Positions 1,701 through 23,592 of a stretch of DNA of 64,000 nucleotides are shown piece by piece (the stretch's first letter is position 1; every line of letters starts with the position of its first letter). The stretch comes from a virus (lineage: Duplodnaviria > Caudoviricetes), in the IMG/VR virus record IMGVR_UViG_3300031801_001562; one strand, given 5' to 3'. The translations under genes and the position numbers were made by a program. The notes beneath the pieces are model-generated. The model did no database searches and was not told the DNA's origin. It saw only the letters and a list, made by a program, of their open reading frames with translations.

Positions 1701-2505
1701 ATCTACCAAATGCCCAATATCGTTCCTGACACCACCAACACTTTTTACAATGTCGAGTATGATGTTTTGTGTCCTCGATACTTCCTTCACAACTATATGT
1801 TAATGGAAATAAAGAATCTAATAATTCTTTATCTTTATATGCTTCTGCTTCCCATTTTTTATTAACATTTATAAATGGATTTATATAGTGTCTATATCCA
1901 TTTCGTTGTTCAACAATTTTATCAACTCCAGTGTCATCCCTAACACGTTCTTTGTTCTTAGGTATCGTTGAATCATCCGCTGGTGGATTTGAAGTGATTC
2001 CTGAATATAATATTTCAAATTTACGATGACGAAAATTATAATCATCTCTTTCCCAAAATATTTTTATTTCTCTCATATATTCATCATCTAATGGAGGATA
2101 ATAAACCTCGTGAGGTAAAATGAAATCAACACCCAAATCTTCCTCTATAAAGTCTATTACGTTTCCGGCATATATAGGATTGTTCGCCCGGCCTCTGCGA
2201 ACAGATATAGGTTGAAATTTAATATCTAATTTTTCATCACGTATTTTTTTACATAATAGATAAGCCAATAAAGAACTATCTGCCCCGCCAGACATCCATT
2301 GTCCTATAACATTAACAGGAATTTCTTCTATATCTGTAGAACCTTCAAACGAACCCAATTTAAATAAAAATTCTTCATTTTCATATGGTTCTTTATCTGC
2401 ATCTTTATATGAATCAAAAAAATCTTCTAAAACTTGTTGCTTTAATCGTTTTGTAGTTGATGGTATTTTAATTTCAACAGTTTTATTTAAATATGTTAAT
2501 TTCAT
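1693..2505 (-). CDS. QueC-like N-type ATP pyrophosphatase (PP-loop)
   Basis: SGGADS PP-loop; C-terminal TYSC...HCKKCWWCQER...AF matching the QueC zinc-site pattern. Confidence 0.75.
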   Translation of the reverse strand: MKLTYLNKTVEIKIPSTTKRLKQQVLEDFFDSYKDADKEPYENEEFLFKLGSFEGSTDIEEIPVNVIGQWMSGGADSSLLAYLLCKKIRDEKLDIKFQPISVRRGRANNPIYAGNVIDFIEEDLGVDFILPHEVYYPPLDDEYMREIKIFWERDDYNFRHRKFEILYSGITSNPPADDSTIPKNKERVRDDTGVDKIVEQRNGYRHYINPFINVNKKWEAEAYKDKELLDSLFPLTYSCEGSIEDTKHHTRHCKKCWWCQERYWAFGRYV

Positions 2506-3929
2506 AATTTATTATACCATTCTAACCATTCTAAATCTGGAAAAATTTTATTAAAATCTAAATCTCTTTTGTCTGATACTTTATAACACCATTCAACTGT
2601 TTCCGGTAATCTTTCGGACCAATCTTCCGAATTCATGAAAGAAGTAAGGCCTTCTAATCTTTTTATTCCGTAAGGAAGTATTTTCCATTCATCCCATGTT
2701 AAATTTTCAACACCATTACATTTGCGCCAATTATCTTTTAACCATTTTCCAAAATCTTTATATTTTAATGTTGTTTCCTTTTTAAACCAATCAGGTAATA
2801 CTTTACAATTTAATTGCGGAGGCCAATATGCAAGATGCAAATCTATCATGCCGGCACCCGCAGGAAATTTATTTAATATCTTCCAATCTTCTTCTAATTT
2901 CCAAGTTATAAATTCGGGTAAGTAAAAAATATTTAGTGCTGTAATACATGTTGCAGTTGTAAGTCTTAAATTATCATAAGGATAATCATCCATTTTATGT
3001 AATTGGTTTACAACTCTTTTCCACTTTGCAGGATATCGAATAAAATAATTTTGTTCTCCGTATGCATCTATACTAAAATGCATAATAACATTTTTAAATT
3101 CTTTCCAAAGATCAAATAAATTAGATTGCCATTCTATACCATTTGAATTATATCTCAGCTCAATATTTTTAGCATGACCCATTTCAATAATTTTTTCAAG
3201 AACTTCATAATGTTCATTCATTATAAGTGATTCTCCACCAGCCCAATATAACTGCCTTAATGTAGGGACTTGTTCGTAAAAGTCTTCCCAAAATTCCGGA
3301 TTTTTTTTATGCCAAGCATAACTTCCACCTGACCATGCTAATTTTCCAGATTCCTTTTCCCACTCCATACTAGACTTGAGTCTTTTATTTTCTAGAGTAG
3401 GCCAAATTTCTTTATATTCTTTTATCCATTTGCTACTATCATGAGGGCTACACATAACACATGCGAGCTGGCACTTATTACCAAGGCGAAGATCAATGTA
3501 CCTTATTTTAGGTGGTATAGCGCCGTCTGTTTCAGTTTCGCCAATGATCTCGTCGAGGCCAAGTTCATTAACCCACTTCGCGGTTTCCCATTGCCTTTTG
3601 CTTCTGTGACCAGCATCTTCTTCCTTAAAACATTTTAAACAAGATGATGGTTTTTCACCTCGCAACATCATTCTTCTGACACCTTTCATATATTCATTAT
3701 TCCAGGCATCTAATAATCTAGTTGTGGCTAAATTTGCTGGCTTACCATCATCTCTTTTAAGAACTCCGGCTTCCGAAACAGTTTTATTAGTAGAATCTTT
3801 ATCTTGTACCGCCGAAGCATTTGCAGTACAGCATACTCTCATATGACCCGATGGTCGAGTCGAAATATGCATCCATGGTAAAGCACAAAATGTTGAAGAT
3901 GGAGTTGGCGGATCATTATCTATTTTCAT
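2502..3929 (-). CDS. N-terminal twitch/SPASM-domain radical SAM protein
   Basis: FCALPW...VCC...CLKCFKEEDAGHRSKR then CQLACVMC, WAGGE, YNSNG, FSIDA. Confidence 0.92.
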   Translation of the reverse strand: MKIDNDPPTPSSTFCALPWMHISTRPSGHMRVCCTANASAVQDKDSTNKTVSEAGVLKRDDGKPANLATTRLLDAWNNEYMKGVRRMMLRGEKPSSCLKCFKEEDAGHRSKRQWETAKWVNELGLDEIIGETETDGAIPPKIRYIDLRLGNKCQLACVMCSPHDSSKWIKEYKEIWPTLENKRLKSSMEWEKESGKLAWSGGSYAWHKKNPEFWEDFYEQVPTLRQLYWAGGESLIMNEHYEVLEKIIEMGHAKNIELRYNSNGIEWQSNLFDLWKEFKNVIMHFSIDAYGEQNYFIRYPAKWKRVVNQLHKMDDYPYDNLRLTTATCITALNIFYLPEFITWKLEEDWKILNKFPAGAGMIDLHLAYWPPQLNCKVLPDWFKKETTLKYKDFGKWLKDNWRKCNGVENLTWDEWKILPYGIKRLEGLTSFMNSEDWSERLPETVEWCYKVSDKRDLDFNKIFPDLEWLEWYNKL

Positions 3930-5109: not shown

Positions 5110-5778
5110 CTAAACATAATTAACACTGATTTGCTTATTGCGCTTTAATGATGGAAATGTAAAAGTAGGATCGCTGTGATGTTCTCGTCTATCTCTTTTT
5201 GTATCTGCAACACCAACACCCATTAACAATACAGGGCTCTCTCCTAAAATATCTTTAACAGCTTGAGAATCCATACACTTACAACAACCAGTGGAATAAC
5301 CCATCTGCGTTGCTATAACATTTACGTAGCCGGCTGAAATACCAATCGCCATTGCACGATCTTCTTCATAATCATCATCCTCTTCTCTTACTTGAGTAGG
5401 TTCATTTTTAGTAAATGCCAATAGCATTTGTCCTAAAACTTGAGGATTAGTATACCAATCGCCCTCTCCATCACCTTCTTCAAAGTGAGCTCGACCGTCT
5501 TTAGATCTTTCATGAGGAGATTTGTTCGCATCATAGGTTTTATAGATTGGTCCAAAGCCTTCTGTGTGTGAATGAATTTTTTCAATCATATCTCGATCTT
5601 CAATAACGTGAAGATTAAAATAGTTAAGATTTTGTTTTGAAGGAGAATTAGTTGCGGCCTCAACAATTAAATCTTTATCTTCTTGAGGAATGTCTTTACT
5701 TAAATCCCAATTCCTCTGACACTTTTGAGATTCATGAATCGTTTCTCGCAGCATCTTATTAAATGAACCATGTGCCAT
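5110..5778 (-). CDS. Nitroreductase-family flavoprotein
   Basis: CQRNWD...IP...AATNSPSKQN N-terminal FMN-binding signature; ATQMGYSTGCC; LLMGVG. Confidence 0.8.
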   Translation of the reverse strand: MAHGSFNKMLRETIHESQKCQRNWDLSKDIPQEDKDLIVEAATNSPSKQNLNYFNLHVIEDRDMIEKIHSHTEGFGPIYKTYDANKSPHERSKDGRAHFEEGDGEGDWYTNPQVLGQMLLAFTKNEPTQVREEDDDYEEDRAMAIGISAGYVNVIATQMGYSTGCCKCMDSQAVKDILGESPVLLMGVGVADTKRDRREHHSDPTFTFPSLKRNKQISVNYV

Positions 5779-6649: not shown

Positions 6650-7121
6650 AAAATTCTTTAAAAAGTTTTTTACCTATTTCTAAATTATTAAATAAATCTT
6701 TTATATTATTATTACCTACTTCATCGGTAATATATTTGTAACATTCAAAACCTACGAGAAATTCATCACATATTTCTTTTAAGAAAAAGGCTTCACAATC
6801 TACTAAATCTGGATTTGAAACATTTTGAGAAACAACTTTTTTTGTAACATACTTACCTTGAGATAAGAGAGTCAATCCTATATTGTTACCTAAAATTTTG
6901 TTTCCATGTTTAAATGTAGTAATTTGATGTAAGCCTCTTAGACCTGAAACATATGTTCCACAAGAACCATAATTTACTATTCGTGTTAATAACTGTTGAG
7001 TCAACGATAAAGATTGTAAATAATTTCTTAAACTTTCTTTACATTTTTTTTCGCCGATTCCTAATAAAATATCCGGATTATCATATTCCTCCGGCATTGC
7101 TACTGCTAATATGTTTCGCAT
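6639..7121 (-). CDS. MTA/SAH nucleosidase-like (nucleoside phosphorylase fold)
   Basis: AVAMPEE, GIGE, IVNYGSCG, VDCEA (cf. VDMEA), KYITD (cf. catalytic Asp in xISD). Confidence 0.7.
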   Translation of the reverse strand: MRNILAVAMPEEYDNPDILLGIGEKKCKESLRNYLQSLSLTQQLLTRIVNYGSCGTYVSGLRGLHQITTFKHGNKILGNNIGLTLLSQGKYVTKKVVSQNVSNPDLVDCEAFFLKEICDEFLVGFECYKYITDEVGNNNIKDLFNNLEIGKKLFKEFYDR

Positions 7122-8215
7122 ACACTATCGTAAATGGTTTGACATTCTTTCGGCATTCCCCATTTTTGAAAATACTTATAAAATTTTATATATTGATTTG
7201 TATATTCTGGATTATTTTTTTCACTAAACATGAATTCAGAAACCTTGTCTAATTTTTTATCTAATTTATTTGATATTAATTCTTTTGTAATATCTGGTAA
7301 ATGTAAAATACTTAAATAATGAGGTTTTAATATTAAATCTAATGCGTGGTTTTCGCCTTCCATACCGTAATGAATTGGAAGGTCTATCCAATTGATTAAA
7401 TCATTTAAACCTAGAATAGAAAAATTATGAATTACAGAATTATAAGAAATGTTTGTTGTATAATTCATCCATTTTGCAGAATTAATTTTAAAATCTTTTA
7501 TATTTAAACCGCGTCTATTCCATTCACCTAATTTACCAATAGAATCTATACTTAATACTAAAGAAATCTTTTTAAATTTGGGCAAATAATATTGCCATTT
7601 TTTATTTGGAAAAACAGAATTATTTGTGTTAATAAACAATTCAACATTTTGAATAATTTTTTGATCTTCTAAAACTTTAAAAACTTTTAAAAAATTATCT
7701 TCTATTAGTGGCTCTCCTCCAAGGATTCTTAATAATGTTAAATTTTCTAGATTTACATTGAACAAATCATATGGAGAAGTTAAATGTTTTTGAGGAGATA
7801 TTTGTCCAACTTTATCTACTCCAATATTATTTAATGCTATATCATCCTCATACCAATTTTGACTAAAATGGCTGCAACACATGATGCATTGAAAATTACA
7901 TTTATTACTTAAACATAATTCTAATTCTCTTATAGAAGGAGTTACAACGTGAGGATATTTTTCATTCCAATAATCTCTATGACTAGGATTACCGTTTTTA
8001 GCATCAACTTTACATTCTATACATCCAGGAATATCTTCATTGGTAACCATTCGCATACGAAAATTATAGTATTCTTTACCATCAAAAAATTCTTGAAGAT
8101 TTTTATGAGTTTCACCAATTTTTACATTCTTAAATCTATTAAAATATGTTGAACAAGGAACTACACTTCCATTTTCATCTTGTCTTATTGCCACCCATGG
8201 CGCACTACATCTCAT
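7106..8215 (-). CDS. N-terminal twitch-domain radical SAM protein
   Basis: MRCSAPW...PCS...CIECKVDAKNGNPSHR; CNFQCIMC; LGGEP; start Met12 gives an ATGA overlap. Confidence 0.9.
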   Translation of the reverse strand: MRCSAPWVAIRQDENGSVVPCSTYFNRFKNVKIGETHKNLQEFFDGKEYYNFRMRMVTNEDIPGCIECKVDAKNGNPSHRDYWNEKYPHVVTPSIRELELCLSNKCNFQCIMCCSHFSQNWYEDDIALNNIGVDKVGQISPQKHLTSPYDLFNVNLENLTLLRILGGEPLIEDNFLKVFKVLEDQKIIQNVELFINTNNSVFPNKKWQYYLPKFKKISLVLSIDSIGKLGEWNRRGLNIKDFKINSAKWMNYTTNISYNSVIHNFSILGLNDLINWIDLPIHYGMEGENHALDLILKPHYLSILHLPDITKELISNKLDKKLDKVSEFMFSEKNNPEYTNQYIKFYKYFQKWGMPKECQTIYDSVCETY

Positions 8216-8961
8216 GACCAATCCCCCATGGTATTTGGGTCTGGACATCGACGAAATTGTCTATCATATTCTTTATAATGATCTAAAGACCTTTCTGTTA
8301 ATCCGCTTTCGAGTTTTATCATCTCTTGTAATCGATTAATTTTAGTGCTTCTAACAATTGGATTAACACCTTTAGATAATAACCAATCAAGCATAACACC
8401 TGATGAGATTGATGTCTCACCCGGCAAAGACGGAGGTTTACCTCTACAAATGGAAGAATAAGACTGTACTTCAATGTTATGACGTTTACATTCATTAATT
8501 AATTCATCATTCTGACAAAATATATTCAATTCAAATTGATTTATATCAGGTGGTATTTCACATATATCTAATAATTTTTGAAGATGTTTAATTGTAAAAT
8601 TACAGACACCTATTTTTTCAACTTGGCCTTCATTTTTAAGATGTTCAAATGCTCTCCATGTTTCTTTTAATTCTTTTAATGGTAAAACGGGCCAATGTAT
8701 TAAATATGTTGTTATACTTAAATGTTCACTAGATTTTTCAAACTCCTCAATAACATTTTCATATCCCCATTTAAAATAATCTAATTTGGACTGGACTTGA
8801 AAGATACCCTCAAGATCATTACCAACTTCTTTCTCATTTAAATATACAGGAGCAGTATCAAAAGTATCAAAGCCGGCTTTTATAGCATCTTCAATTCCAG
8901 TACCTTTACCTTTTAAAGCGTGACCATCATCGCCCCACTTTTCAACTGTTCCAAATATCAT
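8212..8961 (-). CDS. Aldo/keto reductase
   Basis: FDTAPVYLNE (Asp/Tyr), VQSKL (Lys), YLIHWP, IGVCNF, NQFE. Confidence 0.9.
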   Translation of the reverse strand: MIFGTVEKWGDDGHALKGKGTGIEDAIKAGFDTFDTAPVYLNEKEVGNDLEGIFQVQSKLDYFKWGYENVIEEFEKSSEHLSITTYLIHWPVLPLKELKETWRAFEHLKNEGQVEKIGVCNFTIKHLQKLLDICEIPPDINQFELNIFCQNDELINECKRHNIEVQSYSSICRGKPPSLPGETSISSGVMLDWLLSKGVNPIVRSTKINRLQEMIKLESGLTERSLDHYKEYDRQFRRCPDPNTMGDWS

Positions 8962-15740: not shown

Positions 15741-16429
15741 AAAACATCCAGTGCTCGAGGATTCAATGATATAAAAAACTGGTATACATCATCAGCAAAG
15801 GCTAGCCCTTCGTGAGGTTTAATGGAATCATGTAAATAGAGCCGGCCTTGTTCTATATGCGATTCGCTTACCATTTTACCATCTTTTTCATAACGTATAA
15901 CCATGCCGTCGGGATTAGTAGTGCCCCATAATTTAATCCATTGTGTTGGATGCCATGTATCTATATGTTTTTTAAAATGGCCCAAATAATCCCATTTGAG
16001 TATGCAGCTTCTATACATATAAGGCGATAATTCACTTAATGCAGATAGGCTAGAAATCTTTAATGCATCGGTTGGCACTTTAAAATGTTTTTCATTCACA
16101 ATGCTGTCCATATCAATTTCCCGAGAATTCCATTCTTTCCATTTAATTAGATGATCATCTGTCCATTCTTTATATTTAAATTGTGGATATTCTAATAAAA
16201 AATTCCATCTATCTAATGGATAACACGCAGGGTCATCTTTTTTAAAAATACCATCTTCATTGATTAAAGGAACCGCGGATCTTGGAAATTCTAGGTGAAC
16301 ATCTCCCCACGGAAGAAAATTAAATTTGGATATTTCTTTTACAAATATTTCACTATCTATTTTTAACTTTGTGGGAACTAAATTTTGGGTATGATATGTG
16401 TAATATTCTTTTTCCGTTAAGACTTCCAT
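15734..16429 (-). CDS. Putative cupin-fold Fe(II) oxygenase (Asp/Asn beta-hydroxylase-like)
   Basis: C-terminal GHFKKHID...GRLYLHDSIKPH pattern (HxD...H). Confidence 0.55.
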   Translation of the reverse strand: MEVLTEKEYYTYHTQNLVPTKLKIDSEIFVKEISKFNFLPWGDVHLEFPRSAVPLINEDGIFKKDDPACYPLDRWNFLLEYPQFKYKEWTDDHLIKWKEWNSREIDMDSIVNEKHFKVPTDALKISSLSALSELSPYMYRSCILKWDYLGHFKKHIDTWHPTQWIKLWGTTNPDGMVIRYEKDGKMVSESHIEQGRLYLHDSIKPHEGLAFADDVYQFFISLNPRALDVLW

Positions 16430-17037
16430 GTATCATTCTTTATCTGAGTTGATCTAGTCAAAAATTCTCCTGTGTCAAGGTTAAATGTATCACCTGTATT
16501 TACACCATCAACAAATAATGTATCTTCGTGTTCCAAATAATATGGAGAGTCTTTAAAATTAAAAACAGCACCATTTGAAATCATTACTGGCGGAATGCAT
16601 TCTGTAGAGCCATATATGTTCCAAACATTTTGAGCACCTGTTGATTTCATTAATAAAATATCTTCATCAGTAACTGGAGCAGAACCTGTAGAAAAATTTC
16701 TAACAAATTCAAGATTTGGTTTTCTTCTTTTAGCAAGAATTCGCCATGTTCCAACTGCCAATGTAAGAACTGTTGGTTTAACTTCTTCTACAACATCCCA
16801 GAATTTCAAAGGTTCAAATTTAACATTTACTACGTCGCAATGAGTAATCTTTGCGGGTATTATACAAAATGCCCAACATGCTATAGTCCATGACGGAAAA
16901 GGATTTATAATAACATCTCGTTCATCTATTCCCCATTTTTCAACTAACCAATGTCCTGCTTGATAAAATTTTTTTATGTCATGCGTAACTTTTTTTTGCT
17001 TTCCTGTGGAACCACTACTATACATAGATATATTCAT
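16417..17037 (-). CDS. Minimal AMP-binding (ANL adenylation) domain protein
   Basis: YSSGSTGKQK (A3), TGSAP, IYGSTE (A5), TGD (A7); only 206 aa. Confidence 0.78.
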   Translation of the reverse strand: MNISMYSSGSTGKQKKVTHDIKKFYQAGHWLVEKWGIDERDVIINPFPSWTIACWAFCIIPAKITHCDVVNVKFEPLKFWDVVEEVKPTVLTLAVGTWRILAKRRKPNLEFVRNFSTGSAPVTDEDILLMKSTGAQNVWNIYGSTECIPPVMISNGAVFNFKDSPYYLEHEDTLFVDGVNTGDTFNLDTGEFLTRSTQIKNDTWKS

Positions 17038-19232
17038 AAATTATATCTCCAAATATTTTGTTTTACATTATTAAACATTTTACATTCCACCAAATCCACG
17101 ATACCTTTTTGGGATAACTTTTTCATAATGTTTGAAAATTTATAACTCCTGACACCAGTTTTAGAATCTACATTATTTGTTAAATAATATGGACCGACAC
17201 CGCCGGTAATTTCCTTTTGGATGTTTATATGGCTCCATTGATACGAACTTTGTGTAATATCTCTCGATACTTTTTTTACATATCCAGGAAGAGAAGCGCC
17301 TCTGAATAATAAGCGGTATCCTTTTAATTCTTCCTCCCATTTAACCCCACTCATAGAAATTAAAGTTGAACCTATAAAAGTTCCCACCCATTTGGCTTCA
17401 TTATATTTGATACTTTTTAAACTCACATTATTATTGTATCTTGAATATGAACATTCAACTAAAAATTCCAATATTATCAGTAAATCATCATCATTTAATA
17501 ATCTATTCCCACATACTATACTACTTCCAAACCGGTTCGGATGCAGCCGACCATAACCCGCACTTAAATTATGTATATGTTTATTAAAATATATGGATAT
17601 AAAATTTTCAATGTCCTTTAAAACTAAAATAATATTTTGTCGAAGATACTTGATGGAACGTGTATTATCAACCACATGATCATAGTCATCATATGTATTA
17701 TGAATATTATTTTTTATTTGATTATATAATACGCCTATGATTGTTGTTTGCATATCTTGAAACTTGGAAGTGATGAATATCGGATCACTTTCTAAATAAT
17801 CTTGAAATTTAACAAAAAAATCTTTTAATGTAACTTCATCTTTTAAATAATCATAATATATGTATTTTAATATTCGTTGTTCTCCAAACCAAAAATTCAT
17901 AACAATCCATGCGAACATCCAGCCTTTAACAACATCTTCATAAGACATAGATTTCAAAGAAGTAATTATTTCACATTCTTCCATGTCGACATTAAAAGGG
18001 ATAATTTTTGTTTTTATTTTAAAACGTTCCCTATAAGATTTATCATTAAGTTCCGCGTTAGGTAAAATCAAACAAGGATATACGTTTATTTTTAATTTTT
18101 TAACAGGCATTAACGCGGATAACTCATCAACCCACCCATCATACGTAGTACCTGGTAAGGGGTATATTAATTCAACTTCTCTCTCTGTAGAATCCATCTT
18201 ATCTGCATTGACAATGCTCATATTTTTTCTTTTAATATTAGATAAAACTTCTGGATTGGTAGATTGTAAAGCTACTCTAGGAACAGTATTATTATTCTCA
18301 ATACCCTCTAATAATCGTTGTTGTATTTGTAATGAAGAATTTTTACTTGGTGGTGTTTTTGCATAACCTGAGTGTGCTATTTTTTTGGGATAGCCTGTGG
18401 CTTCATGATATCCCACTGCCTTATCTATTATATTATAATCTCTTTCTTTAAATATGCCCAAATTACTATTTGTGAACCAAAGATAATTTATTTTATTACG
18501 ACTAACCCATTCGAATTCTTTAAATAATCGCGGTTCATCAAATTTTATCATTTTTTGTGCAGTTAAACTACCCCAATCACAAAAAGTACATTTAAATGGA
18601 CAACCTCTATCCATCTCAACGGTAGCGTGAAAATTAACCGAAGGATTTTTTAATATAATATTATTAAAAAGACCCGACAAATATGGACTAGGGATTGTAT
18701 TAATATCTTTAATTCTGGAAGCCGGCTTCGTTTTAAAAATTTTATTATTTTTTCTAAAAATAAGACCCGGTATCTCAGAAAAATCTTTTTTATTAAAATA
18801 TTCTAATAAAATTTGTTCAAAGACTTTTTCTCCTTCTCCCACAACACCAATATCTACATAGTCATGCGAATTATACCATTTGCTATCATTAGAATTAGGC
18901 ACATGTGGTCCGCCACAAATAATCAAACAATTAGGATACTTTTTTTTTATTTTTTTTAATATATAAAGGTGCTTATTAGAATTCCACATATAATTACTAG
19001 TAGCAACTATATCTGGTTGTCCCATATTATCAATATAATAATCTAAATTATCTATATTAAACACCAAATCTTTTAATATAAAATTATCGGATATTATTTT
19101 ATTTTGTAAACAATAAGACCAAAGAAGGCCGGCGGAATATGGTAAAAATGCCGATTTATTACTTGACATTTCAGTGCCAGTTGAAGAGTCTATTAAAGGA
19201 GCCGTTAATTGTAATAGATATATATTTTTCAT
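17034..19232 (-). CDS. Cobalamin-binding radical SAM protein with extra C-terminal domain
   Basis: FLPYSAGLLW...PDIVATSNYMWN...GGPH; DRGCPFKCTFCDWG; about 170 aa unassigned C-terminal extension. Confidence 0.92.
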   Translation of the reverse strand: MKNIYLLQLTAPLIDSSTGTEMSSNKSAFLPYSAGLLWSYCLQNKIISDNFILKDLVFNIDNLDYYIDNMGQPDIVATSNYMWNSNKHLYILKKIKKKYPNCLIICGGPHVPNSNDSKWYNSHDYVDIGVVGEGEKVFEQILLEYFNKKDFSEIPGLIFRKNNKIFKTKPASRIKDINTIPSPYLSGLFNNIILKNPSVNFHATVEMDRGCPFKCTFCDWGSLTAQKMIKFDEPRLFKEFEWVSRNKINYLWFTNSNLGIFKERDYNIIDKAVGYHEATGYPKKIAHSGYAKTPPSKNSSLQIQQRLLEGIENNNTVPRVALQSTNPEVLSNIKRKNMSIVNADKMDSTEREVELIYPLPGTTYDGWVDELSALMPVKKLKINVYPCLILPNAELNDKSYRERFKIKTKIIPFNVDMEECEIITSLKSMSYEDVVKGWMFAWIVMNFWFGEQRILKYIYYDYLKDEVTLKDFFVKFQDYLESDPIFITSKFQDMQTTIIGVLYNQIKNNIHNTYDDYDHVVDNTRSIKYLRQNIILVLKDIENFISIYFNKHIHNLSAGYGRLHPNRFGSSIVCGNRLLNDDDLLIILEFLVECSYSRYNNNVSLKSIKYNEAKWVGTFIGSTLISMSGVKWEEELKGYRLLFRGASLPGYVKKVSRDITQSSYQWSHINIQKEITGGVGPYYLTNNVDSKTGVRSYKFSNIMKKLSQKGIVDLVECKMFNNVKQNIWRYNL

Positions 19233-20236
19233 GCCGCGGCATCATTTAAAAATTTATAAGAATAATTTTCCCTAAAAAAATTAATTTGATATTTGGGTTT
19301 ATTCAATGTATGATATTTTTTTAAAGATCTCCAATATTCAGTATGATCATTTTTAGAAGAAGTGTAAAACAATTCTAAAAAATCATATACATGCCGACAC
19401 AATCTAACATATGAACGATTAAATATTTCCTCTTTATTTTTTTTATATTTTAATTTTTCAATAGTTTCTATCGCCCATGTTATTAGAAAAAGTCCTGTAG
19501 CTTCAAGAGGTTCTGCAAATCCACAACTTAATCCCACAGATACGGTATTCCCCAACCACGGAGTTAAACAATATCTATTATTAAAGGGAATGGCGCGAAT
19601 GTCTTCGGCTTTAACATTACCTACATTTTTATTTTTAAATTCTTCAATGGCATCATTTACACTTATAAAATTATTATTAAAAACATACCCATTACCACTC
19701 CTTGATCTTAAATCTACATTCCACATCCACCCATAATCCATAGCGAAAGTGTTTGTTATAGATTGACAATTAGAATCACCAGGCGCGAAGAGGGCCATAT
19801 TATTAGACAGAGTTTTATAAGAACCAAATTGTTTATTTTTAGAAAAATCACTATTGAATCCAGTACAATCTATTACTAGATCAGGATTATCCACTTTACA
19901 TAATCTAGGTCGCGTTATTTCTTCTAGAAGAATAATCATTTTTAACGCATCTAAATGATAAGCATGCATATTATTGGGAAACGGGTGTATCCAATCAGTT
20001 TTATGCCAACCATGATGTTTAATACCATATTTAATTACGCCGTCACACTTATTAATTACATCATCTTCAGATATTCCACAATAATCAAAGAATTTAACTA
20101 GTCCAGGTAATGTACTTTCTCCAACACCTATAGGTTTGGAATTTTTAGGAAGTTTTATTTCAACTTTATTAGTTTGGGATAAATATGCGGCAGCTAACCA
20201 ACCGGCGCTTCCACCGCCTAAAATTATTATGTTCAT
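19229..20236 (-). CDS. Short flavin-dependent (tryptophan) halogenase homologue
   Basis: GGGSAG, PIGVGES, KYGIK, IDCTGF, WMW, FAEPLEATG; start Met3 gives an ATGA overlap. Confidence 0.85.
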   Translation of the reverse strand: MNIIILGGGSAGWLAAAYLSQTNKVEIKLPKNSKPIGVGESTLPGLVKFFDYCGISEDDVINKCDGVIKYGIKHHGWHKTDWIHPFPNNMHAYHLDALKMIILLEEITRPRLCKVDNPDLVIDCTGFNSDFSKNKQFGSYKTLSNNMALFAPGDSNCQSITNTFAMDYGWMWNVDLRSRSGNGYVFNNNFISVNDAIEEFKNKNVGNVKAEDIRAIPFNNRYCLTPWLGNTVSVGLSCGFAEPLEATGLFLITWAIETIEKLKYKKNKEEIFNRSYVRLCRHVYDFLELFYTSSKNDHTEYWRSLKKYHTLNKPKYQINFFRENYSYKFLNDAAA

Positions 20237-20874
20237 AGACAAAGCTTCGTCCTTCTATAAGTTATATCCCATGACTTAAATTCTTGCAATGATTCTATCT
20301 TATAACCAAAACTATTTAAATATACTTCAATATCTTCTTCACTATGTCCATACTGTTTTAATTGATGAGGATATGCTTGATATACTATTGTAGGTAAATA
20401 TTTTTCAATAGTTCTTTCTAATCCTAACAATGCTTCATATTCCATACCTTTTATATGCATTTGTATAAAAGTAATATTTTTAAAATCGAAATCATCAATA
20501 ACTTTTACTATTACTTCTTCGCCTTCTTCTTCATTTAATTGATAACCTCCATAATTACCTTCTTGATCAGGCTTAGCAAATTTTTTGCTTTGTTTAGAAG
20601 CTGCGGCAAATGGAAATATTTTTACATCGGGTACATTTTGTCTTAAACATTCACAATTACTTTCTATAGGTTCCCAAGCATACACTTCATCAAACTTTTT
20701 AGTTAATTGCCTACTCCAAATACCAACATGAGCTCCTACATCAATAGCATTACCCTTAGGTACTGATTTAAGTATTTCTCTATGAATACTACCATCCATA
20801 GGAAAACCGCTTGAATGCATATATTCAAAAAATGAATCATCATCTTGTATGTAAAAGTTGCCTATCTTCTTCAT
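20233..20874 (-). CDS. FkbM-family SAM-dependent methyltransferase
   Basis: AIDVGAHVGIWS, AWEP...N, IDDFDF...FIQMHIKGMEY; start Met8. Confidence 0.85.
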   Translation of the reverse strand: MKKIGNFYIQDDDSFFEYMHSSGFPMDGSIHREILKSVPKGNAIDVGAHVGIWSRQLTKKFDEVYAWEPIESNCECLRQNVPDVKIFPFAAASKQSKKFAKPDQEGNYGGYQLNEEEGEEVIVKVIDDFDFKNITFIQMHIKGMEYEALLGLERTIEKYLPTIVYQAYPHQLKQYGHSEEDIEVYLNSFGYKIESLQEFKSWDITYRRTKLCL

Positions 20875-21041
20875 TTCCCTCCGCGCTTCTTCCACTGCTC
20901 AGGATACTTTTCTCGTAATATCTCATCTATAGAATCTTCAAATGCTTTGCTATTTCTGCCTGGTTTATAAGTACAAGGAAATTTAAAATCTTTATTCCCA
21001 AAGTTTTTTTTCCAAAAGTTGACTATCTTGTTTATTATCAT
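20871..21041 (-). CDS. Small hypothetical protein, 56 aa (not in ORF track)
   Basis: MIINKIVNFWKKNFGNKDFKFPCTYKPGRNSKAFEDSIDEILREKYPEQWKKRGGK; ATGA overlaps at both ends. Confidence 0.7.
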   Translation of the reverse strand: MIINKIVNFWKKNFGNKDFKFPCTYKPGRNSKAFEDSIDEILREKYPEQWKKRGGK

Positions 21042-22462
21042 ACATGTACCATAGTCAAAAAATCATCATGTGTAATATTGTTTGAATAATCTATATCGTA
21101 ATCAGGCTCTGTCCAATCTACATATTTCATATTTTTTGTTTTGTTTAAGTACGGTTTTTCGTAACCAATTAACATTGATGCAAGGTTAAAATGATTAAAA
21201 ATGGTTTCTCCTTTTTTACAATATCTCTTTTTAGAAAGAAACATATTCAAATAATCATTATATTCTTCAATGTTTTGTTGATTATTCCAATATCTCCAAA
21301 ATTCGGAATCAGTTCTGTCACTCAATGTATAATGATATTTTACAAATTCTTTTGAATGTTTGAGAAATCTTTTGAGATGCCTAGATAAAACTTTAGATTC
21401 TTTTGAAGTCCATTTCTTTTTCTTTTTATATTGGTCTACAAAATTAATTACCGTCACACAGGTTAACATCAATGAAGTCGCTTCCATAGGTTCTATAAAA
21501 CTCTGTGCCAGCCCATTTGATATGCAATTATCGACCGCAACATTTTTCATAGATCCATTTTCATATTTTATGCAATCAAATACAAAATCTATTTGGCCAT
21601 TCCAAGCATCTTTTAAAATTTTTCTTGCCTCATCATCAGTAGTAAAATAATCTGAATAGATAAATCCACCCGCAGTTCTATTACGTGTGTTCACATCCCA
21701 CAACCATCCATCAGGTTTTGCAGTCAATTCCGTATAAATTTTATGTTGTTTAGGAACACCTCTGACTTTTCCAGCAACAAATTTATTACAAATCATGTCA
21801 TCATAACTTTCATAATCAGACAATTTTGAAATCAAAACTCTATTAAAACCAGAGCAATCAAAAAATACATCACCATATACGGTTTGGCCATTTTCTAAAC
21901 GTAAAAATTCTATACCATTTTCATTTATGCAAACATCTTTTACACCACTGGTAATTAATGTGTAATCATTGAGATGTTTCTGTAATGTCGCTCCAAATTT
22001 ATCTGCTAATATTTGATATGCATGCCCTGGTCGATCACTAATTGTTTTTGGATAAGGAGTTAAATTTTTATCAAGCAAATATTGTTGAGGACCGTGAAAT
22101 AAATTAAAATATTTTGTGGACATATCTAAATTATTGATACAATACTCAACAGAATCTACTTTTGTTTCTGAAAATTCGAAAGCATCTTCAAATAAATGAT
22201 ACCACACGCTACCTGAATAATTCCAATCATTAAATTTAATTCCATATTTAAATGTAGCATCACTATCTTTTAACCAAACATTTTCTGAAATATTTGCATT
22301 TTCGGCTATCAAACGCAATGTCGGTGTTACTGTTTCACCAACACCAATCGGGTTATTTTGCTCTTCGTGAATAACTGTCAACTCACAATCAATAGAATTT
22401 TTTATATAACTAGCAGTTGTCCAACCTGCGGAACCGCCACCGACTACTACGATTCTAACCAT
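21038..22462 (-). CDS. Flavin-dependent (tryptophan) halogenase homologue
   Basis: GGGSAG, PIGVGET, ATFKYGIKF (catalytic Lys position), FDCSGF, WLW, FIEPMEATS. Confidence 0.9.
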   Translation of the reverse strand: MVRIVVVGGGSAGWTTASYIKNSIDCELTVIHEEQNNPIGVGETVTPTLRLIAENANISENVWLKDSDATFKYGIKFNDWNYSGSVWYHLFEDAFEFSETKVDSVEYCINNLDMSTKYFNLFHGPQQYLLDKNLTPYPKTISDRPGHAYQILADKFGATLQKHLNDYTLITSGVKDVCINENGIEFLRLENGQTVYGDVFFDCSGFNRVLISKLSDYESYDDMICNKFVAGKVRGVPKQHKIYTELTAKPDGWLWDVNTRNRTAGGFIYSDYFTTDDEARKILKDAWNGQIDFVFDCIKYENGSMKNVAVDNCISNGLAQSFIEPMEATSLMLTCVTVINFVDQYKKKKKWTSKESKVLSRHLKRFLKHSKEFVKYHYTLSDRTDSEFWRYWNNQQNIEEYNDYLNMFLSKKRYCKKGETIFNHFNLASMLIGYEKPYLNKTKNMKYVDWTEPDYDIDYSNNITHDDFLTMVHV

Positions 22463-23592
22463 TGTGTTAAATATGGATGTAAATAATTTTGAAATTGTTG
22501 ATTTCGAGAAAAATCAAATAGTGTAATTTCTTTAAGCATTTTCTTTTTATTTTCCACATTTCTTTTAAAATATGAATTGCGTATTTGATTAAACTTTTTC
22601 GAATCTATCCGAGGAACTTTTTCTAACAATTGTCTGCTTAGATGAATCGGGCTTATACCTCGATTATCTGGATATACTTCACAATATGAAACATAAACTT
22701 TTTTAGGTAAGGTGCAACACCATTGCCAATGATTAAGCAAATCTAAAATATTTAAAGCAGAAACAACAACTGCCACATTAACTCTTCCTAAATTTGTAGA
22801 AGTTGTTAAAAATAATCTTATGGTCTTATCTAGTTCATCAAACGATTGAGGATATCTTATATATTCGTAACCTTCTTCAACTGAATCTATACTTAATTTA
22901 GGATGCTGCTTTTTAAATTTATTTAATTTTTTAATTAATCGATCGTTAAACATTGTACCATTAGTATGATACGCAAGAATAGTATTTTTAGCCCATCCAT
23001 TATCAATATATTTATCGAGAAGTTTCAAAACTTGTGTATCAAAAAAAGGTTCCCCTCCACTGAATCTAAGTTCCTTTAAGGGATTATTTAAAAGCCAATT
23101 ATATTGTTTTGAATTGGAAGTTTTGGGAATTGTAATCCGCCCCCTAAATTTACCAGATGTAGACTCTTCAACTTCATGAAGTATGCCTTCTTTGCTAAAG
23201 AATTCATAATCTAACATTAATCTATGACTCGTTTGAGGATCACACATTCTACAAGCCAGATTACATTTATTAGAAAAAATGAAATCAACTACATCTAATT
23301 TTCCTCTGGGAATAGTATCATCATTATGGATTCTGAAAGATTCGATACCTCTATCTTCCATATCCCAACAAGTTTTACAAAATGGATGTTTTATATTATT
23401 AGATAAAGCTTCGCGTAATTCTTTAAATTGTTTTGAATTAAAAGCTTCTTCGGGGGTAAGATCTGTCTCTTCCCATTCCATTGGGTCTTCCCAATCGGGT
23501 CGTGACATATTACAACAAGGATGAAACCATTTAATTTTGTCTCCATCCCAATCTCTAATTGTAATTTGTTTAAAGGGATAACTACATAACAT
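22447..23592 (-). CDS. N-terminal twitch-domain radical SAM protein
   Basis: LCSYPF...PCCN...CKTCWDMEDRGIESFR; CNLACRMC; SGGEP; HTNG; LSIDS. Confidence 0.92.
   Translation of the reverse strand: MLCSYPFKQITIRDWDGDKIKWFHPCCNMSRPDWEDPMEWEETDLTPEEAFNSKQFKELREALSNNIKHPFCKTCWDMEDRGIESFRIHNDDTIPRGKLDVVDFIFSNKCNLACRMCDPQTSHRLMLDYEFFSKEGILHEVEESTSGKFRGRITIPKTSNSKQYNWLLNNPLKELRFSGGEPFFDTQVLKLLDKYIDNGWAKNTILAYHTNGTMFNDRLIKKLNKFKKQHPKLSIDSVEEGYEYIRYPQSFDELDKTIRLFLTTSTNLGRVNVAVVVSALNILDLLNHWQWCCTLPKKVYVSYCEVYPDNRGISPIHLSRQLLEKVPRIDSKKFNQIRNSYFKRNVENKKKMLKEITLFDFSRNQQFQNYLHPYLTQWLES

Follow-up and report, generated by a model that had tools for sequence, protein, structure and literature searches.

Why a bacteriophage should keep two homologues of flavin-dependent halogenases (FDHs), one of them much reduced, and what such enzymes would act on, is the question raised by a 64,000-nucleotide stretch of viral DNA (Caudoviricetes; IMG/VR record IMGVR_UViG_3300031801_001562), referred to here as the window. 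Its source is an uncultured marine T4-like myophage with an island of tailoring enzymes of roughly 25-40 kb. On the minus strand of this island, a long FDH homologue of 474 amino acids (aa) (21038-22462) and a short one of 335 aa (19229-20236) flank an FkbM-family methyltransferase of 213 aa (20233-20874) and a micro open reading frame (ORF) of 56 aa (20871-21041), an arrangement that the original prediction, made from the sequence alone, had described correctly. We find that both homologues keep the catalytic residues of their family, that the short one belongs to a clade of reduced viral enzymes under purifying selection, and that members of this clade frequently lie beside a probable GNAT-like protein, here called X, and a miniature adenylating (ANL/AMP-binding) enzyme, here called mini-ANL. 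This linkage across many phage lineages replaces a guess from adjacent genes and gives a three-gene set.

Both copies match PF04820 (Trp_halogenase) well above its cut-off of 21, the long copy at 249.7 bits (E value, 7e-74; profile positions 1-443 of 458) and the short copy in two stretches at 210.7 bits (5e-62), and both match PHROG 2928, "tryptophan halogenase" (3e-88 and 3e-75, respectively). Motif positions were set by HMMER alignments to solved FDHs, including PyrH and Thal, and conservation was read from alignments of 92 relatives of the long copy and 105 of the short. The three motifs that both copies had been said to keep are found in place by these alignments. GxGxxG reads GGGSAG in both (residues 8-13 in the long copy and 7-12 in the short), with Gly columns that are invariant or nearly so. 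The strand bearing the catalytic Lys reads FKYGIKF (K72) in the long copy and IKYGIKH (K69) in the short, and this Lys, equivalent to K79 of PrnA, is invariant in both sets. The FxEPxE motif reads FIEPMEATS and FAEPLEATG, respectively; its Glu, equivalent to E346 of PrnA, is E324 in the long copy (100% conserved) and E242 in the short (95%, Asp otherwise). Further invariant positions are E327 in the long copy and G7, G9, G39, E40, W170, F240, and P243 in the short, whose GVGE and DCTG motifs are invariant or nearly so. The HxF platform is retained as well (H89/F91 in the long copy and H84/F86 in the short).

The flavin-shielding motif, canonically WxWxIP, reads GWLWDVNT in the long copy and GWMWNVDL in the short; the ending had been read as WxW-DV/NV, and it proves to be common among relatives. 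Pro occupies the last position in 74/92 relatives of the long copy and 34/105 of the short, and Asp or Asn is found there in 18 of the 92. The Trp pair itself (W253/W255 and W170/W172, respectively) is 93-100% conserved; in the short-copy alignment the first Trp is invariant or nearly so and the second is conserved at 93%. Because the two copies are only about 25% identical and fall in separate, well-supported clades of the tree, they are not a recent duplication. As everything needed for the chemistry of the family is conserved in both, we take both to be halogenases, and we infer from their sequences that both bind flavin adenine dinucleotide (FAD) and halogenate.

The reduction of the short copy is considerable: it is 139 aa shorter than the long copy, and the difference from PyrH is 176 aa. 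In the alignment of the short copy with PyrH, residues 3-89 pair with PyrH 3-95 and residues 120-308 with PyrH 219-419, and about 93 internal and about 65 C-terminal residues are absent relative to that enzyme. The AlphaFold2 model of the short copy (pLDDT, 93.9; pTM, 0.92) aligns with FDH structures over 320-334 of its 335 residues (VIA-align Z, 35-41); Z is 41.0 for Xcc4156 (6y1w) and 36.8 for PrnA, with 328-334 residues aligned and a chain range in PrnA of 6-468. When models are set against PrnA and VirX1, a comparison that the original prediction had proposed, both copies adopt the FDH fold at a Z of 34.7 or higher. Three parts have been lost from the short copy: about 50 residues that form the helices after the HxF platform, as judged from sequence and secondary-structure comparison; about 25 residues before DCTGF, which correspond to the beta-meander of the FAD domain and possibly one strand; and the last 60 or so residues, the C-terminal helices. 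In PrnA-type structures, the helices after HxF and the C-terminal helices together form a module that encloses the substrate, so that much of the substrate-binding region is missing from the short copy. The earlier description of a protein of about 335 aa that lacks some 130 aa, including much of this region, thus holds, with the helical module mostly gone; what encloses free tryptophan in enzymes of the PrnA, RebH, and PyrH type is incomplete here. The alignment and the aligned model ranges suggest an active site that would be open.

The long copy presents a different picture. It matches solved FDHs at E values of 1e-42 to 1e-30, and its AlphaFold2 model (pLDDT, 93.7) superposes on PrnA (2apg) with a Z of 39.8 and 461 residues aligned, model residues 1-474 falling on chain residues 4-518, and on 6y1w with a Z of 42.0 (457-461 residues aligned across the two structures). 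Since this superposition on full-length enzymes spans its whole length, we regard the long copy as a complete, if somewhat compact, FDH. Its compact, helical C-terminal module is present in the model; sequence alignment to PrnA does not extend beyond about 390-408. Relatives of 411-527 aa at 35-66% identity come from marine metagenomes, and the ratio of nonsynonymous to synonymous substitution rates (dN/dS) is 0.12. As a complete FDH of a single domain, the long copy belongs to a marine clade that is largely viral.

The short copy is likewise no isolated oddity. We found about 3,400 relatives in all, and the cluster formed with it at 90% identity holds 208 member sequences on contigs of up to 220 kb, one of them labelled by its source as an archaeal metagenome-assembled genome. 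Some 14 DNA runs contain the stretch with the short copy almost in full; they come from about nine studies, with samples from seawater and vents. Its relatives are graded in length, with forms of 335-347 aa at 50-65% identity, many of 365-416 aa at 36-44%, and full-length ones near 30%. The tree unites the short FDHs (327-416 aa) in one clade (support, 99/97) and places the window copy in a group of four (335-345 aa; 100/100) inside a clade (99/98) of forms of about 390-409 aa that carry the triad of short FDH, X, and mini-ANL. The topology and the lengths fit an origin by stepwise reduction, in which the whole clade would have lost the C-terminal helical substrate module and the 335-345-aa sub-lineage additionally lost the helical insert after HxF and the FAD-domain beta-meander. 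All contexts fetched for the 365-416-aa forms look viral, with RNase H, ThyX, and Mtd_N tail-fibre genes or IMG/VR records. The dN/dS of the short copy against its near relatives is 0.06-0.16, and its reduction is selected, not decay.

Which genes stay with the short FDHs was read from gene contexts. In every independent context that we fetched, an AMP-binding protein of 202-255 aa lies within one gene of the short FDH, and a protein of 152-199 aa, X, usually stands between the two. BLASTP (1e-10 to 4e-21) shows X to be a homologue of the C-terminal 160 or so residues of a 732-aa ORF of the window, a KedN5-like B12-binding radical SAM methyltransferase (17034-19232, minus strand; NF033712, 8e-60; PF02310) fused in frame to an X domain at about residues 564-732 (roughly 17034-17540). 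On this evidence, the radical SAM gene has been inserted between the short FDH and X in the phage lineage to which the window belongs, and in the window itself the gene is fused to X. Among the viral loci that we numbered for comparison, the fusion (732-736 aa) also occurs in L106 and L112, and the protein is split into 550 and 161 aa in L004 (11005-13129) and L107-L110; this difference among close relatives is either a natural fusion or fission or a frameshift. For a census of the linkage, 78 further viral loci were scanned with profiles of the three proteins, FDHs being dereplicated at 80% identity and linkage counted within 3.5 kb. Of the 29 testable short-FDH lineages, 19 have both X and mini-ANL (200-236 aa) at that distance, and of 11 lineages with a full-length FDH none does; one further short-FDH lineage has mini-ANL alone, and another has a full-length ANL enzyme of 503 aa. 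A separate observation concerns locus L097 (5247-9224), where tandem short-clade FDHs of 412 and 416 aa lie directly downstream of a full-length 503-aa ANL, possibly an unreduced version of the pairing.

The two partners are themselves unusual. The mini-ANL of the window (206 aa; 16417-17037, minus strand; PF00501, 2e-18, profile positions 168-330 of 384) spans roughly motifs A3 to A8 only. It corresponds to residues 170-398 of the 503-aa ANL enzyme (hhalign probability, 98.4), with matches to PDB profiles over about 160-305 or beyond. Proteins of this kind from 23 phages (202-236 aa) end in an invariant Thr-Trp-Lys just past the hinge Arg, and this terminus might take over from the catalytic Lys of the ANL C-terminal domain, which these proteins lack. 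X has no match in Pfam or PHROGs. Two weak leads, feature scores of 0.94-0.97 in the Atlas to clusters named N-acetyltransferase or with Acetyltransf Pfam families and a PDB profile match to the GNAT protein 3t9y (E value, 0.052), suggest that it is probably GNAT-like. The idea that X is the missing N terminus of a split ANL was unsupported (hhalign probability, 0.2), in what was a weak test with a single-sequence template. Complex prediction of the short FDH with X and mini-ANL gave a score of 0.19 (mark, 0.32) and counts neither way. GenBank phage records yielded no match to X and only weak partial matches to mini-ANL, and for this reason the triad is confined so far to uncultured viral sequence. 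The FDHs of the cultured phages HTVC008M and Campylobacter phage CP21 lie in different contexts, with no triad. In the Pelagibacter phage HTVC008M (record positions 63763-65157), a 464-aa FDH and a PhyH dioxygenase are found between the small and large terminase genes of the structural module.

In the window, ATGA stop/start overlaps occur at all five junctions of the series long FDH, micro-ORF, methyltransferase, short FDH, B12-binding radical SAM gene, and mini-ANL, an organization that fits a single, translationally coupled operon. The overlaps bear on two start sites. The listed ORF of the short FDH (19229-20242, minus strand) begins at a TTG that is probably wrong, because the ATG at 20236 shares an ATGA with the stop codon of the methyltransferase, and translation from it yields the 335-aa protein. 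For the methyltransferase, listed as 20233-20895 on the minus strand, the ATG at 20874 is the most likely start because it overlaps the stop of the micro-ORF. In RNA libraries of three studies, short contigs span parts of the operon; the micro-ORF is covered in full, and several stretches, among them most of the short FDH, are uncovered. These contigs lend weak support to transcription, as DNA carry-over is possible and neither absence nor strand nor level can be read from contigs.

The original prediction had looked to the genes between the two FDHs, a 56-aa ORF and a methyltransferase (PF05050, Methyltransf_21, 3e-11; TIGR01444, 4e-14), to identify the substrate. Sister phages whose short FDHs are 95-99% identical to that of the window speak against this, since both genes are variable or absent beside them. 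Locus L012 has the window arrangement, methyltransferase included. L007 and L013 have a long copy of the window type and the micro-ORF, with a Cys-rich ORF of 157 aa where the methyltransferase sits in the window; L004, L006, L008-L011, and others have a long FDH of 417-423 aa, 45% identical to that of the window, followed by the micro-ORF and the Cys-rich ORF; and in L003 and L005, with short FDHs at 99% identity, the 45%-identical long FDH and the Cys-rich ORF are found and the micro-ORF is absent. The methyltransferase is thus a variable cassette, and the long-FDH allele has been replaced by recombination inside the island. Further out, one short copy at 50% identity has no second FDH nearby, and another at 65% is directly followed by a 411-aa FDH. 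Two details of the exchanges may be recorded here. The Cys-rich ORF in place of the methyltransferase is unrelated to it and measures 156-164 aa (L004, 9534-10004; L007, 7626-8099; L003, 9510-10004), and its sole match is a weak one to zf-CW (E value, 0.01-0.09). The swapped long-FDH allele of L004 (8109-9362) lies between an upstream radical SAM gene for nearly the same protein as in the window and a downstream short FDH that is 95-99% identical.

The micro-ORF, judging from its pattern of substitution, is a real small protein gene that is not tied to the FDH genes. We found six clusters of homologues, which share a near-invariant core of 31 aa; changes are mostly synonymous (dN/dS, about 0.05-0.2), and conservation peaks in the middle of the sequence, as in a small folded protein and unlike a leader-plus-core peptide. 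Searches of Pfam (E value of up to 10), PHROGs, and the Atlas gave no usable match, and a scan of 19000-23000 against Rfam at E values of up to 1 gave none. A nucleic acid element beneath the ORF was rejected, its RNA fold being weaker than that of shuffled sequences (z, +2.26) and there being no covariation and no Rfam match; we therefore read the DNA conservation as that of a protein under purifying selection. The core is more than 90% identical in DNA across otherwise unrelated viral contigs (window 20886-20992, minus strand; L042, 8001-8156; L043, 477-677), and the gene behaves like a small mobile one. Its homologue in L042 has small ORFs and a HIT-family gene for neighbors, and no FDH is encoded within 13 kb of it. 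In one source, a homologue bears the label "putative lipoic acid-binding regulatory protein" (YbeD-like), which Pfam does not confirm, and a DSID stretch, which we take to resemble the Ser motif of acyl carriers, has no profile support.

The operon sits in a larger setting. The window has a G+C content of about 31% and carries nearly all its genes on the minus strand, and from about 560 to 24400 it holds a continuous series of tailoring-type enzyme genes. Among them are at least six radical SAM proteins, several of the N-terminal-twitch type; two B12-binding radical SAM methylases; PhyH and TauD dioxygenases; two FkbM methyltransferases; a nitroreductase-family protein; an aldo-keto reductase; a short AMP-binding protein; and an epimerase. 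An N-terminal-twitch radical SAM gene (22447-23592, minus strand; NF033640, N_Twi_rSAM, 7e-60, above cut-off) lies directly upstream of the long FDH and overlaps its start by 16 nucleotides. The nitroreductase-family flavoprotein (5110-5778, minus strand; PF00881, 4e-12) shows a weak match to the NAD(P)H-flavin oxidoreductase 3gbh (7e-4). Two further radical SAM-type genes, at 2502-3929 and 7106-8248 on the minus strand, have an N-terminal SPASM match, and the radical SAM profile is matched by the former alone. The island is neighbored by replication and nucleotide metabolism genes. The window has replication genes of T4 type, and T4 RNase H, ThyX, a DnaB-like helicase, and a ribonucleotide reductase of class II are among its products. 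The DNA polymerase of the window is about 50% identical to those of T4-like cyanophages, and a search of GenBank phages for DNA nearly identical to the window found none close.

In the chemistry of the family, hypohalous acid forms from reduced FAD, oxygen, and halide, and a Lys and a Glu steer it to an electron-rich carbon. Our preferred reading, held with roughly even confidence, is that both genes encode working members of this family and that the short copy acts on a bulky or tethered target which is built or presented by mini-ANL and its GNAT-like partner. Reduced FAD would come from a host reductase or possibly from the nitroreductase-family protein of the island and would react with oxygen and halide, and in the short copy Lys69 and Glu242 would guide the resulting hypohalous acid. 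The target is probably not a free amino acid; a bulky or tethered aromatic group is suggested by the loss of the enclosing helices, the retention of the HxF platform, and the linkage to an acyl-activating enzyme and a probable acyltransferase. We infer for these partners that they might, for example, adenylate an aromatic or heteroaromatic acid and transfer it to an amine acceptor, for which sugars, peptides, and proteins are candidates. Neither the 56-aa ORF nor the methyltransferase is a likely presenter. The suggestion in the original prediction that an open, truncated site suits a protein or peptide substrate thus survives in its general part, as a bulky or tethered substrate would fit by analogy with open-site FDHs, and is not supported for the 56-aa peptide. 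A bolder proposal, to which we attach little probability, is that short FDH, GNAT-like protein, and mini-ANL are an undescribed module of uncultured aquatic myophages that builds and halogenates an acyl group on a macromolecule of host recognition, such as a receptor-binding protein or a cell-surface glycan.

Several observations weigh against the preferred reading. The pair of X and mini-ANL is wanting in 10 of the 29 short-FDH lineages, which makes the link frequent and not obligatory, and in most phages X and the ANL gene are convergent to the FDH, in a separate operon. No carrier protein or aromatic-substrate enzyme turned up in Pfam scans of individual island proteins or in the 4-kb Rfam scan. 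The missing beta-meander, with possibly one strand, is part of the Rossmann-type FAD domain, so that cofactor binding by the short copy is not assured. Finally, both window copies have Ala where the published motif Fx.Px.Sx.G has Ser. Ala is also found there in 82/92 relatives of the long copy and 79/105 of the short; as this position and the WxWxIP ending vary among relatives and WxWxIP variants occur in active FDHs (PMC8407142), we do not treat either as defining.

That one or both proteins are not halogenases in vivo and instead serve as a monooxygenase or other flavoenzyme, or, for the short copy, as a cofactor-less structural or regulatory subunit, would accommodate these departures from WxWxIP and Fx.Px.Sx.G as well as the deletion in the FAD domain, and many PF04820 proteins are substrate orphans, BrvH and Xcc4156 among them (PMC7754283). 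We think this improbable in view of an invariant Lys and an invariant or nearly invariant Glu, which the family needs for halogenation rather than plain hydroxylation, of a Trp pair conserved at 93-100%, of active enzymes with motif variants, and of GxGxxG, GVGE, and DCTG motifs retained under purifying selection. The same selection, at the dN/dS values given above for both copies, makes it extremely improbable that the genes are transient, nonfunctional cargo of illegitimate recombination, the short copy being a decaying fragment. Such an origin was proposed for prnA of cyanophage P-SSM2 (Sullivan et al. 2005, PMC1079782), and the region is indeed a recombination mosaic, but the folds are confident, the frames are intact and coupled, the short architecture is common to a whole clade with invariant catalytic residues, and the RNA-library contigs cover parts of the genes, a weak point given possible DNA carry-over.

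The other two alternatives concern the substrate. If the 56-aa product were a RiPP-like peptide (a ribosomally synthesized and posttranslationally modified peptide) halogenated by one or both FDHs and further tailored by the methyltransferase, one could point out that the gene is real and subject to purifying selection, that its translation is coupled to that of the long FDH and of the methyltransferase, that it is kept beside both long-FDH alleles, and that it encodes two Trp and two Tyr. Yet Trp10 and Trp50 are not conserved in the homologues P0449 and P0450, the mid-sequence conservation does not resemble a leader-plus-core design, and the ORF is absent from L003, from L005, and from most short-FDH phages, so that it does not co-occur with FDHs as a RiPP-type precursor does (MibH type). 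We rate this idea as very unlikely, because its Trp residues are not conserved and the L042 homologue occurs without an FDH. A protein substrate, in which the exposed site halogenates Trp, Tyr, or His of a virion protein (a tail fibre or receptor-binding protein) or of a host surface protein, alongside protein-type hydroxylases, has rather more to recommend it, and we still consider it unlikely. The loss of the substrate module in the short copy would suit it. In loci L044 (3195-10000), L049, and L050, five or six tandem genes of the Asp/Asn beta-hydroxylase family and a thioredoxin gene lie immediately upstream of the short FDH. This run, which the short FDH ends, converges on an operon in which an Mtd_N tail-fibre gene comes first and mini-ANL and X come last, an arrangement that favors a protein target. 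The two FDHs of Syn9 lie after tail-fibre genes, and such islands of pelagimyophages have been termed host recognition clusters (PMC7029224). In the window, however, the island adjoins replication and nucleotide metabolism genes and not tail fibres, and adjacency to tail fibres may merely mark where hypervariable islands sit. We know of no halogenated phage protein. The idea also overlaps the preferred reading of a target built by mini-ANL and X, as a protein could be the acceptor.

Homologues of FDHs in T4-like marine phages are already known from prnA of P-SSM2, Syn9, and VirX1, and we know of no natural substrate or role for any viral halogenase, though such homologues have been listed in marine phages since 2005. 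PMC10452541 lists them for 20 of 153 cyanophage genomes, and our tblastn searches found FDHs in 73-82 phage records. Within the reach of our literature and database searches, three elements appear to be new: the reduced FDH clade of viral contigs, the 335-aa form that lacks part of the FAD domain, and the recurrent linkage to GNAT-like protein and mini-ANL. If the module proposed here is real, it would give viral halogenases their first natural role, and the 335-aa protein would be the smallest working FDH, active without the FAD-domain beta-meander. As a minimal scaffold, this 335-residue core would also be of interest to enzyme engineers, as a test of how much of the FAD domain and the substrate module the chemistry needs.

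Comparison with known systems shows where the window enzymes belong. PrnA, RebH, PyrH, and Thal, together with the orphan relatives BrvH (6frl) and Xcc4156, share the Pfam family and the fold (Z, 35-42; root mean square deviation, 2-3 Å). The window copies keep the GxGxxG motif, catalytic Lys, FxEPxE Glu, Trp pair, and HxF platform of this PrnA type (variant A); they differ in being only 21-33% identical, in a shielding motif that ends in VN or VD rather than IP, and, in the short copy, in the missing helical insert, beta-meander, and last helices. VirX1 of cyanophage Syn10 (6qgm), prized as an iodinating biocatalyst, is to our knowledge the only characterized viral FDH. It too comes from a T4-like marine phage, and its active site has been proposed to be open (PMC8407142). 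VirX1 is full length (531 aa), however, and only a distant relative (E values of 5e-30 and 3e-31; Z of 34.7 and 36.8), ranking below bacterial FDHs. The Syn9 array of ten dioxygenases and two tryptophan halogenases, for which tailoring of peptides or secondary metabolites was proposed (Iyer et al. 2010, PMC2938197), resembles the window in its tandem FDHs among oxygenases in a T4-like hypervariable island. The two FDHs of Syn9, however, have the full length (507 and 530 aa), and in the Syn9 stretch that we inspected no gene is annotated as an adenylating enzyme, acetyltransferase, or radical SAM protein.

Variant B FDHs, such as PltA with PltF and PltL, SgcC3, CndH (3e1t), and CmlS (3i3l), act on carrier-tethered substrates with a partner adenylation enzyme. 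They resemble the short copy in that their site is open, without a closing C-terminal module, and in their genetic link to an adenylating enzyme. In structure, the short copy is nearer to variant A (Z, 35-41) than to CndH and CmlS (Z, 28.7-29.7), and Pfam scans of individual island proteins found no PP-binding domain. The ANL of the window is a fragment-like form of 206 aa, and its companion in the triad is a probable GNAT-like protein.

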